Below are positions 57,919 through 63,587 of a DNA stretch of 64,000 bases, piece after piece (position 1 is the first letter of the stretch; each line of letters begins with the position of its first letter). The notes beneath the pieces were generated by a model. It did not search any database and was not told the DNA's origin. It saw only the letters and a list, made by a program, of their open reading frames with translations. Both the position numbers and the translations under genes were made by a program. The DNA is from an uncultured delta proteobacterium (lineage in GTDB: Bacteria; Myxococcota_A; Polyangia; Polyangiales; Polyangiaceae). The DNA lies in assembly GCA_963716725.1 (NCBI GenBank), contig CAVQUB010000011.1:160001-224000 (forward strand), written 5' to 3'.

Positions 57919-58299
57919 ATGCCTACTGATCCGACAATCTCACCCACGGCCGTCCGGGCTCCCCACGGGGCCAGCGTCTTCGAAGTGGCCTGGGCGGACG
58001 GCCGGACTCAGCGCTATCCACATAGAATCCTTAGGGGTTTTTGCCCGTGTGCGTCCTGCCAGGGGCACTCGGGCCGGATCGGCTTCCTCGAGCCACCGAA
58101 CACCGAGCTGCGCCACCTGAGCCAGGTGGGCAACTACGCGCTGGCCCTGGTCTGGGGGGACGGCCACGACTCGGGCATCTACTCGTTCCGGTTTCTGAGA
58201 AGGCTGGGCGACCTGCTCGAGGCACATGGGGCGCCGGGGCTCGAGGCCATCGGGGAGCTGCCGCGCTCCGTGATCCCCGACGGGGGGCCGAGGACGTGA
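57919..58299 (+). CDS. DUF971 (GBBH-like N-terminal) protein
   Basis: W.DG, LRGFCPCASC, VGNYAL...WGDGHDSGIYSF..L. Confidence 0.88.
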   Translation: MPTDPTISPTAVRAPHGASVFEVAWADGRTQRYPHRILRGFCPCASCQGHSGRIGFLEPPNTELRHLSQVGNYALALVWGDGHDSGIYSFRFLRRLGDLLEAHGAPGLEAIGELPRSVIPDGGPRT

Positions 58300-59261
58300 A
58301 GCCCGAACACATCGCAATCGTCACGACCTCGTTCCCCGAACGCGCCGGCGATCCTGCGGGGCACTTCGTCGCGACCGAGGCGGTGATGCTGGCCAAGGCC
58401 GGGCACCGCGTGACTGTGATCGCGCCAGGATCGAACCGGGAGTTCGACGGGCTCAGGGTGATCGGCGTCGGTGCGGGCTCGAGCTTCGGGTGGCCGGGAG
58501 CCCTGACCATCATGCGCTCACGACCCCATCGCGCGCTCGGCGCCGCCGCCTTCGTCGCCCGAGCCCGCCGAGAGCTCCGCAGCCTGCCCTGCGACCGGGT
58601 GATTGCCCACTGGCTCGTGCCGTCGGGCTGGCCCATCGCTACTGCGGCGTCCATTCCCCTCGAGGTCGTGGCGCATGGCAGCGACGTGCGCCTGCTCTGC
58701 CGGCTGCCAACGGCGCTTCGTCACCACGTCGTCTCCCGGCTCTTGGCACGACGCGCCCGCGTGCGCTGCGTGTCGGACGAGCTTCGCGACGAGCTCGTCG
58801 CCTGTGATGCGCGCCTCGCTGGGCAGATCAGCGTCGATCCCGCGCCCATTGACACCAGCCACGCGCCCGATCGCCCGCGCGCGCGGCGCCTGCTCGGGCT
58901 GCCGAAGGCGGCGCGCCTGATCGTGATCGCCGGCCGGCTGGTGCTCTCCAAGCGCGTGCACGTCGCGCTCACGGCCGCTGAGCTGATCCCGAACGCCATC
59001 GTAGTCGTGATCGGTGACGGTCCGGAGGCCTCGACGCTCGCGGAGAGCCACCCGGACGCGCACTTCCCCGGGCTGGTCCCCCGGGACCACGCCCTGACCT
59101 GGATCGCCGCTGCGGATCTGGTGCTTTCCGCGTCGCGCACCGAAGGCGCGCCCACGGTGCTGCGCGAGGCGCGCGCTTTGGGCGTGCCCGTCGTCAGCAC
59201 CGCCGCGGGTGATCTCGAGCGCTGGGCGCGATCCGATGGCGAAATCTGGGTCGTGGACTGA
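58296..59261 (+). CDS. Glycosyltransferase family 4
   Basis: VTTSFP...GHFV, AHGSD, GRLV..K, EGAPTVLREA (EX7E). Confidence 0.85.
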   Translation: MKPEHIAIVTTSFPERAGDPAGHFVATEAVMLAKAGHRVTVIAPGSNREFDGLRVIGVGAGSSFGWPGALTIMRSRPHRALGAAAFVARARRELRSLPCDRVIAHWLVPSGWPIATAASIPLEVVAHGSDVRLLCRLPTALRHHVVSRLLARRARVRCVSDELRDELVACDARLAGQISVDPAPIDTSHAPDRPRARRLLGLPKAARLIVIAGRLVLSKRVHVALTAAELIPNAIVVVIGDGPEASTLAESHPDAHFPGLVPRDHALTWIAAADLVLSASRTEGAPTVLREARALGVPVVSTAAGDLERWARSDGEIWVVD

Positions 59262-59262
59262 A

Positions 59263-60816
59263 TCAGAAGCGTGCGCCCGCGCCCAGCTCTGCTCCGCCGC
59301 GCCACACCGGGCGCGTTGCGCTCCCGCGCTTCACCCCCAACGCTCCGGCGCTCGCCGAGAGCTCCAAGAACAGGACCTCAGCCACGCCGTAGCGCGCCGA
59401 AGCCACCGCAGCGCCCCCCAACGCGAGGGCGCGGTACTCGTCCTCGACGTCGAATCCGAGCGGCTCCAGATCGGCGGCGTCCTTGCGCCGCACGACCTCG
59501 CGTAGCCAAAGGACGCTCGGGCCCAGCCCCGCACGCAGCTCGGCGCGCCCGAGATCGAACACGTACTCGAGAGTCGCCGTCGCATCGAGCGATTGGACCT
59601 CGACGTCGTTCGCACCGGGCGCATGGCGGCCGGCGGCGCCCCCGAGGCGCAAGGTCATTCCAAGATCGGACAGCCGCGTCGATGCGCCCAACTCGAGGCG
59701 GGGCACGAGCGGATGAACGTTGGCCGTGGTCAGCCCCGCGGCGACGAATACTGCATGAGGTCGCAGCACGAGCGTGCCGCCCTTCGCAGCAAGCTCTTCG
59801 ACCTCCACGGGACGAAACTGTGACGCCGTCAGTTCGCGACGCTCACCTCGAGCCAGGGTCAGCGTCACCGCCCCGGCGCCGCCAGCACCCCGCCGCTGGA
59901 GCAGGTACTGCCCGGGCGGCAGCGCGATCTCGGTCGTGCCTTTCGGCGTGGCCCAGACCTCGGCTTGCACGGTCTTCGAGCCCGTCGCGTACGCCAAGTA
60001 GTGGGTGTCTCGGGCCGCCGGCAGGCTCAGATGCGCGGCGCCCGCATCTCTATAGGTGAGCACCAACGGCGTGCTCTCGTGCAGTCGATACTCGGCCTCC
60101 GGCCGCTGAACCACGCCCGACCCGCGCGCCGTCCGGTACAGGGTCTGATGGTAGGCGTAGGTCCACGCCTCACTGAGCGTCACCTGCTGGTCGCGATTGC
60201 GATCGGCGCTGCCTCTCAGCCCGCTCACCAAGAAGTGAGTGAACACGGCGCCCTGAAGCTTGTCGGATTCCTGCGCCGCTTCACCGTCTGCCGATGCGTG
60301 CAACCAGACCGATCCCGAGGCCTGAGGGGCGTCCACGTTCAACGAGAACGCCGGCGTCTCGCGCACGCCCTTGGCTCGGGTCGCTTCGGTGGTGCGGCAC
60401 GCATCGGTGATCACCAAGCGGAGCCCGGCGCGAACCGAGTCGATGCGCTGGCGGAGATCCGCGAGCGTGACGCTCTTGCCGGCCAGCAGCAGGCGAGTAC
60501 GGTCGCCGTGCGCGCTGACGTAGACGATCAACGTCACCTGGTCTTTGGCTTGCTTCGCGGCGATTGCCGCCGCTTTCGACAGGGCGGCGTTCAGCTTGTC
60601 CTCGGTGGCGTCGGTAACCACGATAGCGTTCTCAGGCTTCACGCGGCCTTGCTTGATGAACACTTCGGCAACGCGCTTTGCGTCGCGGTCCGCGTGTCTC
60701 AGCACGGCCTGCTCGGGCAGACCCCGCCGTTGCCCCGCACTGACCAGGACGCGAATCGGCTCCGCCCAACTCTGAGACGTCCAGAGCAGACACACGAGGA
60801 CGAGCCAGACCCTCAC
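59263..60816 (-). CDS. Secreted caspase-family (C14) protease with PEGA-like spacer and C-terminal beta-barrel
   Basis: Signal peptide, L..ADRDA, YVSAHG (His), ITDACR (Cys), AQES...GAVFTHFLVSGLRG.AD; about 8 amphipathic strands ending in Phe. Confidence 0.85.
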   Translation of the reverse strand: MRVWLVLVCLLWTSQSWAEPIRVLVSAGQRRGLPEQAVLRHADRDAKRVAEVFIKQGRVKPENAIVVTDATEDKLNAALSKAAAIAAKQAKDQVTLIVYVSAHGDRTRLLLAGKSVTLADLRQRIDSVRAGLRLVITDACRTTEATRAKGVRETPAFSLNVDAPQASGSVWLHASADGEAAQESDKLQGAVFTHFLVSGLRGSADRNRDQQVTLSEAWTYAYHQTLYRTARGSGVVQRPEAEYRLHESTPLVLTYRDAGAAHLSLPAARDTHYLAYATGSKTVQAEVWATPKGTTEIALPPGQYLLQRRGAGGAGAVTLTLARGERRELTASQFRPVEVEELAAKGGTLVLRPHAVFVAAGLTTANVHPLVPRLELGASTRLSDLGMTLRLGGAAGRHAPGANDVEVQSLDATATLEYVFDLGRAELRAGLGPSVLWLREVVRRKDAADLEPLGFDVEDEYRALALGGAAVASARYGVAEVLFLELSASAGALGVKRGSATRPVWRGGAELGAGARF

Positions 60817-61523
60817 GGATCCACCAGGTAGCTGAACGGGATCGCGGTGACGCCGGTCGGGACACGGTCTTGGCGGGCCTTCGCGACGGCGTCCGGATGA
60901 CCCACGATGATCCAACCGCGGCTCCGCTCGGCGTCGAAGGTCGCAGCGCGCTCCGAGAAGTGCGTGCCTGCGTCGAGCTCCGCGGCAAGCAAGAGCGGCA
61001 CGTACTCGCCGGTCGACGTGAGCACGCCCGCGGCGACGGGCGTGGGCTCGGCCAGGCTCACCTCGACGCGGATCTGATCTCCCGGCACGACCCCGAGTTC
61101 ACCGGTCACGCGCTGCTGACGGCCCGCGCGCTCGACGATCACGAATACCTGCGCGGCGCCCTTGAAACGCGTGTCAGGACCGATGGGCCCGGCGGTCGGG
61201 CTGTGGGTGGGATCCGGGCCGGAGGGCGCGGCCACCTTCGGCAACCGACCCAGGTAGAAGATGAGGCCCGCCGCGACCAAGAGCGGCGGCCCGAAGTAAG
61301 GCGCCAGCCGCAGCACCTTCGCGCCGCGCGAGAGGGGATCAGCCAGGGCCGCATCGAGCGACTTGCGATCGGCGCCGTCCTGGCGATACGCCGCCAGCTC
61401 TCGCTCGAGCGCTGCAACGTACTCGCGACAGGCCGCGCACTCGGCGAGGTGGCCCGTCGCTTCCGGATCCGAGTCGCCGGCGACCACGGCTTCGAGGCGA
61501 TAGCTGGGCATGTGCTCATCCAT
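60813..61523 (-). CDS. ZAS-type transmembrane anti-sigma factor
   Basis: HLAECAAC (HxxxCxxC), single TM, periplasmic beta domain; overlaps ECF stop. Confidence 0.8.
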   Translation of the reverse strand: MDEHMPSYRLEAVVAGDSDPEATGHLAECAACREYVAALERELAAYRQDGADRKSLDAALADPLSRGAKVLRLAPYFGPPLLVAAGLIFYLGRLPKVAAPSGPDPTHSPTAGPIGPDTRFKGAAQVFVIVERAGRQQRVTGELGVVPGDQIRVEVSLAEPTPVAAGVLTSTGEYVPLLLAAELDAGTHFSERAATFDAERSRGWIIVGHPDAVAKARQDRVPTGVTAIPFSYLVDP

Positions 61524-62052
61524 GGGTCGATGCCTCGGGGTTCGAGTCGAGCAGTCGGCGAGCGTGGTCGCGGATGCGTTGCAGTCGCTTGTTGACCGTA
61601 ACGCGCGAGACTCCCAGCGCTTCGGCGGCCTGCGCCTGGCTCATGCCGTCGATCAGCGTGCAAATTGCCAGCTCTTGGTCCTCCTTCGGGAGGTCACCCA
61701 GTGCCCTGCAAACCGCGTTGCGCGCCTCGAGATCCACGCCGGGAGGCGCCGCGAGGTCCGAGGCCGCGTCATCGACGTCGTCGGCCTGCCGCAAGCGGCG
61801 CCCCCGCCGCAGCTGATCGAGGGCGGAGCGGTCCACCACCTGGTGCAGCCACCGGAGCGGGTGTTCCGCCGCGCGGTAGGCCGCACCCTTACGAAGCAGC
61901 TTCAGCAGTGTCTCCTGCACGACGTCGTCAGCCAGGGCGACGTCGCGCGTGATGAGCAAGGCGCGACGTCGCATGAAGAACCCGTACCGTTGGTACACGG
62001 CGGCTACTTCCTCACGGCTGAGTCCCTCGGTCACCGTTCGCTGCTCTAACAC
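61516..62052 (-). CDS. ECF sigma factor
   Basis: ADDVVQE, LRWL...ALDQLR (region 2); GMSQAQAAEALGVSRVTVNKRL (region 4). Confidence 0.92.
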   Translation of the reverse strand: MLEQRTVTEGLSREEVAAVYQRYGFFMRRRALLITRDVALADDVVQETLLKLLRKGAAYRAAEHPLRWLHQVVDRSALDQLRRGRRLRQADDVDDAASDLAAPPGVDLEARNAVCRALGDLPKEDQELAICTLIDGMSQAQAAEALGVSRVTVNKRLQRIRDHARRLLDSNPEASTHG

Positions 62053-62085: not shown

Positions 62086-62946
62086 TCAGTTGGCAGGACA
62101 CGGCCAGCCCGCCGGCGGCGTGGCCTCGGCGTGCGTGTAGATAGTGGTCTCGATCGAATGCTCCTGATAGCAAGGGCCGTCGTAGACGACGGTGTCGATG
62201 GAGTAGCCGTACTGATTGTCACCCACTTCGCAGGACAGATTGGGATCGCTCGCGCTGGGGTACTCTCCGTCCGGACCCTTCACCCCCGGCGCGGCTTGGG
62301 TGGTGCTCCCCGATCCGGTGCCCATCGTGCCGTCGACGCACATCAGGCTCTGCGCGTCGTCGGAAGCGTCTTCCGTCAACACCAGCTTGGTGCTGAGTGG
62401 AACCCATGCGAACTCGTCGCCTTGCTTCGAGATTGACGCGATGTTGAAGCCCGGCTGGGGTTTGGCGCCGGTCGGGTCGGTGAGGTCCGGAGGCGGCGCT
62501 CCATCGAGGTAGACCAAGAGCCGGTCGGCGTCGCGCGCCACGATCTTGTCGATGGCCTTGGTCGAAGACACATCCAGGAGATCGAGCTTGCCGTTGCCGT
62601 TGAGATCCTCGTATGCGACCAACATCGCCCACGCGCCCTTGGTACTCTTCGGGTCGTCGTCATCGAGAGGCCCCATGAACGCCTTCGGAGGCGGCTGGGT
62701 GACGGCCAACGAAAAACCGTTGAGTGACGCCGACTCGGGTGCGATCTCGGCTGCCACTGCGTGACTGAGGGACGAGTACCAGAGCAGCGCCACGCCCACC
62801 TTGCCGCTGCCGAGCGACCCGCTCGTACTGCTGACAGCGCCATTGAGCGTGACCAGCGTCGACGGGTCACCCTCGTCTTCGGGCAGGCTGCCGCACGCCA
62901 AGCCGGTGGTCGCAAGCAGCAAAGATCCAATCAAAAGCCGTTTCAT
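62086..62946 (-). CDS. Lipoprotein, first gene of ECF operon
   Basis: Lipobox GLAC; EF-hand-like YEDLNGNGKLD; GGAGAG SD. Confidence 0.8.
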   Translation of the reverse strand: MKRLLIGSLLLATTGLACGSLPEDEGDPSTLVTLNGAVSSTSGSLGSGKVGVALLWYSSLSHAVAAEIAPESASLNGFSLAVTQPPPKAFMGPLDDDDPKSTKGAWAMLVAYEDLNGNGKLDLLDVSSTKAIDKIVARDADRLLVYLDGAPPPDLTDPTGAKPQPGFNIASISKQGDEFAWVPLSTKLVLTEDASDDAQSLMCVDGTMGTGSGSTTQAAPGVKGPDGEYPSASDPNLSCEVGDNQYGYSIDTVVYDGPCYQEHSIETTIYTHAEATPPAGWPCPAN

Positions 62947-63001
62947 TACATCTCTCCCAGGTTCACCGCCGGCGTCGGTCGCCAGCGTCGTTCACCCTCG
63001 G

Positions 63002-63046
63002 GACGCAGCTCCCCCCGAGAAGTGTAAAGGCGGCCGCTGATTTTTT
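63002..63046 (-). promoter_or_regulatory. Putative ECF-type promoter
   Basis: Minus strand: A-tract, then TTACA-N17-CGTC, about 55 nt upstream of lipoprotein ATG. Confidence 0.4.
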
Positions 63047-63059
63047 CGCGTCCCTCCCC

Positions 63060-63587
63060 TCACCCCCGCGCGGCCCCGGTCACCCGCGGCAGAATTTCCA
63101 CGAAATTGCAGGGACGCGTCCGGGCGTCGAGCTGCGGCAGGAGGATCTTCTCGAGGGCCAGACGACAGGCCCCGGTCGAGCCGGGCAGCGTGAACACCAG
63201 AGTGGTCCCGCACAGCGCCGCCTCGCTGCGCGACTGGATGGTCGAGGCGCCGATCTCGGCGTAGCTGAGCCAACGGAACAGCTCACCGAAGCCCGGCAGG
63301 GATTTGGTCACCAGCGGCGCGAGCGCGTCCGGGGTGACGTCCCGGGCGGTGATGCCGGTGCCTCCGGTGGCCACGACCACGTCGACGTCCGGAGACGCAA
63401 TGAAGCCCTGAAGCTCCGAGCGAATCGCGTCGAGATCGTCGGTGACGATGCGCCGCGCGGCGATGGCGTGACCCGCACCACCAAGATCCGTCGCGAGCAA
63501 TCCTCCGCTGGTATCCGTCTCGAGCGTCCGCGTATCACTCACGGTGAGCACGGCGATCCTGAGGGGCACGAAAACACGTTCCGACAT
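63060..63587 (-). CDS. moaB: Molybdenum cofactor biosynthesis protein B
   Basis: [10 protein letters not shown]...[44 protein letters not shown]. Confidence 0.93.

Follow-up and report, generated by a model that had tools for sequence, protein, structure and literature searches.

A conserved Lys-Gly motif in a caspase-like protease and its operon-encoded anti-sigma factor in Myxococcota: a candidate common cleavage site

The window analysed here is a stretch of 64,000 nucleotides from an uncultured delta proteobacterium of the Polyangiaceae (assembly GCA_963716725.1, contig CAVQUB010000011.1, positions 160,001 to 224,000). On its minus strand, a gene for a sigma factor of the extracytoplasmic function (ECF) type is followed by the genes of a predicted anti-sigma factor and of a caspase-like protease. 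The two latter proteins contain the short segments T-R-F-K-G and T-R-A-K-G, respectively, which a sequence-only reading of the window had proposed to be a common cleavage site. The genes are located as follows (window coordinates):

62086..62946, minus strand: lipoprotein of 286 residues with the lipobox LAC, often present as a fourth member of the module
61516..62052, minus strand: ECF-type sigma factor of 178 residues (Pfam Sigma70_r2, E=7.2e-10; Sigma70_r4_2, E=5.6e-9)
60813..61523, minus strand: predicted single-pass zinc-finger anti-sigma factor of 236 residues (from its motif, AlphaFold model and gene context)
59263..60816, minus strand: caspase-like protease with a beta-sandwich and a C-terminal eight-stranded barrel (from Pfam, AlphaFold and Foldseek)

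These genes form a translationally coupled operon in the order (lipoprotein)-ECF sigma-anti-sigma-caspase, which is probably autoregulated. The 3' end of the sigma gene overlaps the start of the anti-sigma gene by 8 nucleotides, and a putative GTG start of the caspase gene lies within the TGA stop of the anti-sigma gene (GTGA overlap). The longest open reading frame (ORF) of the caspase gene spans 59263-60915, and the residue numbering used throughout refers to this long ORF. Since caspase homologues are ~510-540 residues long and a database protein with 99% identity has 517 residues, the start codon is likely the GTG at 60814-60816. The sigma protein scores 69.2 bits against NCBIfam sigma70-ECF (TIGR02937, cut-off 42.9) and contains only regions 2 (PF04542) and 4 (PF08281), as is characteristic of ECF sigma factors.

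The anti-sigma protein has no family match in Pfam or NCBIfam. It is assigned as a single-pass zinc-finger anti-sigma factor because it combines an H-x3-C-x2-C motif, a helix at residues 65-92, a Pro-rich stretch, and a C-terminal beta-sandwich. All of the 49 sequences compared retain the motif residues H25, C29, and C32. Its AlphaFold model (mean predicted local distance difference test score, pLDDT, of 85.5) comprises helices at 7-61, a transmembrane (TM) helix at ~65-92, a Pro-rich linker, and an immunoglobulin (Ig)-like beta-sandwich at 125-232. The modelled topology is that of a cytoplasmic helical domain, a single TM helix, and a periplasmic Ig-like beta-sandwich. The position of the motif within an N-terminal helical domain, the single TM helix, the extracytoplasmic domain, and the overlap with the cognate sigma gene are the features of class I zinc-finger anti-sigma factors (ZAS). 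A Foldseek search of the model against the PDB returned only generic Ig-like sandwiches (E≥9.5e-3, none at E≤0.001). DUF4384, an initial guess for the periplasmic domain, was dropped, as no Pfam match was present even at E≤10.

The caspase-like protein is composed of a catalytic domain, a middle beta-sandwich, and a barrel, with the following elements:

60508..60510, minus strand: codon of the predicted catalytic His136 (in SAHG; His in 98 of 100 homologues)
60397..60399, minus strand: codon of the predicted catalytic Cys173 (in DAC; Cys in 97 of 100 homologues)
59833..60099, minus strand: middle beta-sandwich domain, residues 273-361 (AlphaFold strands; MALT1 caspase-Ig3 among the Foldseek matches)
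59266..59757, minus strand: C-terminal eight-stranded beta-barrel, residues 387-550, ending in Phe (eight long strands at 387-549, pLDDT >90)

Residues 71-238 match Peptidase_C14 (PF00656) with 41.4 bits (cut-off 21.4), and a match to NCBIfam NF047832 (caspase, EACC1-associated type) stays under its cut-off (48.8 bits against 140). The AlphaFold model (mean pLDDT 88.7) displays the caspase-hemoglobinase fold, and Foldseek aligns it with caspase-8, -3, and -7 and with MALT1 caspase-Ig3 at E-values from 5e-10 to 4e-8. Helix 32-47 of the long ORF is hydrophobic, N-terminal, and resembles a signal peptide. Together with an even count of long antiparallel strands and a terminal aromatic residue (Phe in 70 of the 100 homologue ORFs), it is what is expected of a barrel protein of the outer membrane, while the match of the barrel to Pfam OMP_b-brl (PF13505) is sub-threshold (E=0.094, 13.3 bits, cut-off 28.7). 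We infer from the model that the protein is an exported one whose C-terminal barrel tethers it beneath the outer membrane; the catalytic domain would therefore face the periplasm.

Three short segments of these two proteins are of interest here:

60367..60381, minus strand: TRAKG, caspase residues 179-183, candidate autoprocessing or pseudosubstrate site between K182 and G183
61158..61172, minus strand: TRFKG, anti-sigma residues 118-122, candidate scissile bond between K121 and G122 at the junction of stalk and domain
59776..59790, minus strand: AAKGG, caspase residues 376-380, located in the linker that joins a short helix (372-376) to the barrel

The sequence-only reading had placed the first segment just behind the catalytic Cys in a processing loop of the p20/p10 type, the second at the end of a Pro-rich stalk, and the third in front of the barrel, and all of these placements hold. 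Translation of the minus strand puts T-R-A-K-G six residues past Cys173, and in the AlphaFold model it lies in the loop between the Cys strand (165-173) and the next strand (200-206), at the position of the caspase intersubunit linker. Translation likewise agrees with T-R-F-K-G at the end of the stalk, and the first barrel strand, which follows A-A-K-G-G, begins at residue 387. Burial of the motifs in the predicted structures had been named as grounds for giving up the idea of a cleavage site; instead, both the caspase loop and the anti-sigma stalk fall into segments with pLDDT <50. The caspase model has a single internal segment of this kind, residues 176-195. The stalk of the anti-sigma model drops below a pLDDT of 50 at residues 100-108 and 110-120, and the sandwich begins with a strand at 125, so that K121-G122 would sit exactly at the point where the disordered stalk meets the domain. 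Both motifs are thus predicted to be located in exposed, unstructured segments outside the buried cores.

To follow these segments among related bacteria, relatives of the caspase were collected at E ≤ 0.001, yielding 183 proteins, mostly from Polyangia and Labilithrix-type bacteria. In species-representative genomes, 291 caspase loci were confirmed, of which 79 were kept; these, the window copy, and 20 more distant loci make up a set of 100 caspases. A first protein search with the anti-sigma factor found only 6 relatives, in all of which R-F-K-G is invariant, and a hidden Markov model built from these was then used to scan the caspase loci. The 20 further loci were chosen from a phylum-wide search with the anti-sigma profile, in which many matches were to the generic N-terminal zinc-finger part, by taking loci where the match reached the periplasmic domain. 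The caspase gene was found to be split over two or three frames at some loci (L069, L046, L047, and L068), representing frameshifts, pseudogenes, or assembly errors; Labilithrix luteola has two modules, one intact (L021) and one split (L069, a second copy, on the chromosome).

In 69 of the 79 caspase loci, the gene directly upstream of the caspase gene, in the same orientation, encodes an anti-sigma factor, and it has a sigma gene ahead of it in 67 of these 69. Among the 10 loci where no anti-sigma gene was detected, L040, L042, L062, and L075 lack upstream DNA because the contig ends there, and L052, L072, L074, L077, L078, and L079 carry the most distant caspases. In all 20 distant loci chosen via the anti-sigma factor, the anti-sigma gene stands between a sigma gene on its upstream side and a caspase gene on its downstream side, and none of these loci offered an anti-sigma factor of this family without a caspase neighbour as a control for the motif. 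The caspase/anti-sigma module appears to be widespread in Myxococcota, and reports place it in other phyla as well.

Conservation of the motif in homologues had been set as a check on the sequence-only reading, and its cores are indeed kept in both families. In 121 aligned caspases, the segment after the catalytic Cys follows the pattern DACR-(variable, 0-3 extra residues)-R-x-K-G. Within the 100-caspase set, R180 is found in 84, K182 in 94, G183 in 98, and F190 in 90 sequences, with neighbouring columns being variable or gapped. At the anti-sigma junction (90 sequences), T118 occurs in 29, R119 in 58, F120 in 49, K121 in 80, and G122 in 89, and the linker ahead of the motif, which is ~13 to 60 residues long, is mostly made up of gaps. 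The Lys-Gly cores are therefore found among the best-conserved columns of otherwise variable, gap-rich loops. In the 20 more distant pairs, the residue before Lys is similar in both proteins, and three pairs carry identical tetrapeptides in both partners, namely R-A-K-G (L084), R-V-K-G (L098), and R-V-R-G (L099). The third motif has the consensus E-x-L-A-x-[K/R]-G-G, caps the short helix, and shows Leu and Ala before the Lys instead of Thr and Arg. Its position 378 is Lys in 97 and Arg in 23 of 121 sequences, and G379 is present in 120 (in the 100-sequence set, 94 are basic and 94 have Gly). As hhalign detected no homology between the anti-sigma and caspase alignments (probability 0.1%), the motifs were not inherited from a common domain, and this profile-profile comparison rules out a shared domain as their source.

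A complex of the two proteins was predicted from caspase plus sandwich (48-366) and anti-sigma residues 96-236, each with its own alignment. It reached an ipSAE (interaction prediction score from aligned errors) of 0.42 (runs 0.42, 0.45, and 0.36) against 0.00 for the best control, which lends weak support to an interaction: of 157 solved complexes, 116 attain this mark, as do 2 of 215 mismatched pairs, yet no more than 18 of the solved complexes, but both of the mismatched pairs, attain it at 0.60 or under. The runs share at least 78% of their contacts, with a partner pLDDT of at least 79, and the support bears on the interaction as such and not on the placement of K121 relative to the active site.

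Several acidic residues are conserved in the 100 caspases (D78 in 94, D171 in 98, and E216 in 100). In non-metazoan members of the C14 superfamily, an acidic S1 pocket confers Arg/Lys specificity. D78 and E216 may belong to this pocket, and D171 occupies the D-x-C position that lines the pocket of Arabidopsis metacaspase 4 (AtMC4). In that metacaspase, the Asp of D-x-C and C-terminal residues form a negative pocket which holds the linker Lys225, the first self-cleavage site (PMC7206013). Orthocaspases cleave after basic residues (PMC6426788). Given the conserved acidic residues, the AtMC4 pocket, and orthocaspase specificity, a basic residue before the cut is a reasonable expectation, and by analogy it is plausible that the caspase of the window prefers a basic residue at P1.

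Co-variation of the Lys positions was assessed in 88 pairs. Two of the 90 pairs were set aside, L068 because its caspase is frameshifted and L095 because its caspase is degenerate (E=5e-22) and has lost several other conserved positions. Where the caspase lacks the P1 Lys, the partner anti-sigma factor lacks it as well (3 of 3 pairs), compared with 5 of 85 pairs where the caspase has Lys. The three Lys-less pairs (caspase/anti-sigma) are Leu/Met in L082 (G212:C100), Arg/Met in L085 (G041:C7), and Arg/Arg in L099 (G028:C3); as each occurs in a different family of the phylum, the three events of Lys loss are probably independent. The sequence-only reading had called for co-conservation of R-x-K-G in both genes. 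This was borne out for the Lys, which co-varies in a few lineages, and not clearly for the Arg.

We tentatively interpret the [R]-x-K-G segments of the caspase loop and the anti-sigma junction as a common cleavage site, a reading in which belief and doubt come close to balancing. Its cores are conserved, predicted to be exposed, and co-vary at the Lys. In the corresponding mechanism, the anti-sigma factor would present a small Ig-like domain in the periplasm on a flexible, Pro-rich stalk. At rest, the R-x-K-G loop of the protease would either occupy its own acidic S1 pocket as a pseudosubstrate or be cut there in autoprocessing. Upon activation, the same pocket would take the anti-sigma [R]-x-K-G at the junction of stalk and domain and cut after the Lys. 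This would strip off the periplasmic domain and leave a stub of ~29 residues (from ~residue 92 to K121), similar to what DegS leaves on RseA. A site-2 protease would then clear the stub, whereby the sigma factor would be freed. The basic specificity, the cleavage events, their order, and the signal are all part of what we infer.

The order of events would resemble the RseA/DegS/RseP system, where a periplasmic site-1 cut of a single-pass anti-sigma factor leaves a short stub that is subsequently processed by a site-2 metalloprotease. Here as well, the anti-sigma factor is single-pass and the genome of the window encodes Peptidase_M50 proteins (PF02163, 11 matches, best E=1.1e-65). The difference lies in the candidate site-1 enzyme, which would be an operon-encoded caspase-fold cysteine protease anchored in the outer membrane and not a serine protease.

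The sequence-only reading went further in that one specificity could drive self-maturation, release from the barrel, and anti-sigma cleavage, which we retain as a hypothesis. In its full form, a single Lys/Arg-Gly cascade, the caspase would first become active by cutting its own loop after K182 and might also cut the [K/R]-G-G hinge before the barrel, with release from the outer membrane as the result; it would then cut the anti-sigma factor between K121 and G122 and pass the stub on to a site-2 protease. We regard such a cascade as distinctly unlikely; since the operon is probably autoregulated, it would constitute a self-amplifying envelope sensor.

Several observations weigh against a common cleavage site. 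The first concerns the motif itself. The window caspase and anti-sigma factor share 8 5-mers of the form XX.XX, compared with a mean of 5.0 in 500 composition-preserving shuffles, and at least one such 5-mer is shared in 99.4% of the shuffles; with a single wildcard at any position, 34 are observed against 24.7 ± 7.6. From these counts, the sharing of T-R-x-K-G is expected in almost any protein pair of such composition. What stood of the shared motif is hence the [R]-x-K-G core, conserved in both families, and not the full T-R-x-K-G, in which the Thr is often present in both families without being invariant, the 5-mer match is at chance level, and the third site is without Arg. That the two 5-mers match exactly is coincidental to this lineage, on top of a real, conserved, and exposed [R]-x-K-G in both proteins and a [K/R]-G-G ahead of the barrel. 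Furthermore, the Arg is absent in 32 of the 90 anti-sigma factors. In the Polyangia-type set, the residue before the Lys is Phe (49) or Leu (16) in 70 anti-sigma factors, as opposed to mostly Ala, Asp, or Glu in 77 caspases. Co-variation of the Lys (Fisher exact p = 5e-4) was framed post hoc and rests on three events, and the Lys is changed in the anti-sigma factor while being kept in the caspase in L058 (Met) and in L061, L063, L065, and L070 (Arg). For the Arg, inspection of the pairs shows that 5 of 11 caspases without Arg pair with an Arg-less anti-sigma factor, which does not clearly exceed the background of ~1/3. In L082, both lysines are replaced by hydrophobic residues with the acidic pocket residues unchanged, which makes this locus a poor fit to simple cleavage after a basic residue. 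Since the length of the linker between membrane and motif varies widely, the stubs would be of very different sizes among members of the family, which speaks against a strict requirement for stub size. Finally, MALT1, which is among the closest structural relatives of the window caspase, is selective for Arg over Lys and does not need cleavage of its linker.

In an alternative reading, the two proteins would interact through K-G segments that are docking or structural elements and not scissile, with the protease being an output or partner of the sigma factor (not its activator) and the resemblance being partly coincidental. For example, the anti-sigma junction and Ig-like domain may bind or hold the protease, thereby sensing or inhibiting it, and the caspase loop may be part of the active-site architecture. 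We consider this unlikely, although it fares best among the alternatives. The protease is produced together with the sigma and anti-sigma factors, as would be expected of a regulon member, and loops beside a catalytic Cys are often conserved for catalysis, just as a Gly after a basic residue at the start of a domain can be a structural cap. The differing residues before the Lys and the intact module of L082, with Leu and Met in place of the lysines, also fit a docking role. On the other hand, both segments are predicted to be disordered and not packed, the Lys positions co-vary, and there are three separate conserved [K/R]-G sites, all of which are found in linkers.

It is more improbable still that the two motifs are functionally unlinked, each being conserved for unrelated reasons and similar by chance. 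Short motifs match randomly very often, and the strictly shared positions are only the Lys and the Gly. Nevertheless, the R-x-K-G class is kept in pairs whose caspases are ~30-40% identical to that of the window, including the pairs with identical tetrapeptides (L084, L098, and L099), and both the co-variation at P1 and the obligate adjacency of the genes speak against chance.

The site-1 proteases known to act on anti-sigma factors, among them DegS, PrsW, and Prc, are serine proteases, and exposed basic-Gly sites are generic targets, yet the least probable alternative is that the K-G sites are cut by another periplasmic protease (trypsin-like, HtrA-type, or tail-specific) with the caspase being a substrate or downstream effector, given that the anti-sigma gene adjoins the caspase gene in 69/69 and 20/20 loci with neighbouring DNA and a detected anti-sigma factor, that no other protease gene is a conserved member of the module (the lipoprotein being the only other frequent neighbour), and that the anti-sigma site is linked to the caspase through the co-variation of the Lys.

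The lipoprotein is probably the fourth member of the module. Its gene lies 33 nucleotides upstream of the sigma gene, and homologues were found with phmmer in 44 of 99 related loci. Polyangia-type loci carry the homologue upstream of the sigma gene, and other loci carry it past the caspase gene, on the downstream side. The lipoprotein has no Pfam match. The family displays a conserved Y-x-D-x-N-x-N-G-x-L-D stretch and five Cys residues, the conserved Cys18 being the lipobox Cys, and K-G is not conserved in its alignment. An EF-hand-like stretch was observed in the caspase domain (residues 238-249, ~60169-60204, minus strand), with the family consensus D-x-D-G-D-x-x-V-T-L-x-E and a weak match to the calcium-binding protein 3akb (E=0.17). 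D238, D242, and E249 are conserved, and the window copy has Arg, Asn, or Gln at some of the liganding positions. Together with the D-x-N-x-N-G-x-L-D of the lipoprotein, this stretch hints at possible Ca2+ control, as in metacaspases. Ahead of the lipoprotein gene (62947-63070, minus strand), two TGAAC words lie within ~50 nucleotides of its start codon and could be an ECF-type -35 element. On the opposite side of the operon, a gene for a GT4-family glycosyltransferase (58041-59261, plus strand; Glycos_transf_1, E=5.5e-15; Glyco_transf_4, E=3.8e-12) points towards the caspase gene's 3' end in convergent orientation.

Among the closest systems described is DdvS/DdvA of Myxococcus xanthus, in which DdvA is a transmembrane anti-sigma factor with a fused periplasmic TPR-CHAT part, for which a caspase-like cut of the linker before RseP has been proposed (PMC11506125). 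In both systems, an ECF sigma factor is held by a zinc-finger transmembrane anti-sigma factor, and a caspase-fold domain in the periplasm, equipped with a His-Cys dyad, is directed at a flexible linker beside the TM helix (PMC11506125). In DdvA, however, TPR-CHAT is fused to the anti-sigma factor and acts in trans within a dimer, whereas the window encodes a separate C14-type protein on an outer-membrane barrel and an anti-sigma factor carrying only a small Ig-like domain; cleavage is a proposal in both systems. A search for longer relatives found no fused anti-sigma-caspase proteins, which is weak evidence. AtMC4 is similar in having a Lys between the part with the catalytic Cys and the C-terminal part of the caspase fold and an Asp at the D-x-C position (PMC7206013). 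It differs by its linker domain of ~150 residues, its cytosolic location, and its triggering by Ca2+, compared with a loop of ~25 residues here with the Lys 6-12 residues after the Cys, and Foldseek places the window protein closer to caspases and MALT1 than to metacaspases. In the craspase of type III-E CRISPR systems, the TPR-CHAT protein Csx29 cuts Csx30, which leads to release of a sigma factor (PMC10028731). There as well, a sigma factor is under the control of a caspase-fold protease that cleaves the partner protein, but craspase is cytoplasmic and RNA-guided, has a CHAT domain, and follows another cleavage specificity (PMC10028731).

The association of such genes has been described before. 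Asplund-Samuelsson et al. (2012) reported that four metacaspase operons of Myxococcus xanthus DK1622 contain sigma factors and that sigma-70 and metacaspases are also associated in Anaeromyxobacter, Haliangium, Sorangium, Ralstonia, and Fibrobacter (PMC3501461); the parts of that paper considered here give the association alone, without an anti-sigma factor, barrel, motif, or mechanism. CHAT-domain neighbours are described for ECF54 (PMC8999054). A literature search, with subscription-only papers outside its scope, found no paper proposing a C14 caspase as a protease of a transmembrane anti-sigma factor or a shared motif, none proposing that a separate C14 protease on an outer-membrane barrel cuts an anti-sigma factor, and none joining the terms 'ECF' and 'Peptidase_C14'. 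Regulated proteolysis of anti-sigma factors is already known; the present reading, which is partly supported, adds an operon-encoded, outer-membrane-tethered caspase-fold protease as the candidate enzyme.

The module bears on two general questions, namely what activates the majority of the thousands of ECF sigma/anti-sigma pairs and, as a long-standing one, what bacterial caspase homologues do. Myxococcus xanthus is tractable, and with the four such operons reported for it (PMC3501461) the hypothesis is directly testable, while the natural variants L082, L085, and L099 are useful test cases. If the K-G junction is indeed cut by the neighbouring caspase, both questions would be answered with targets that can be mutated (K121/G122, K182/G183, and C173), and the module would exemplify proteolytic signalling of the caspase type across the envelope of bacteria.

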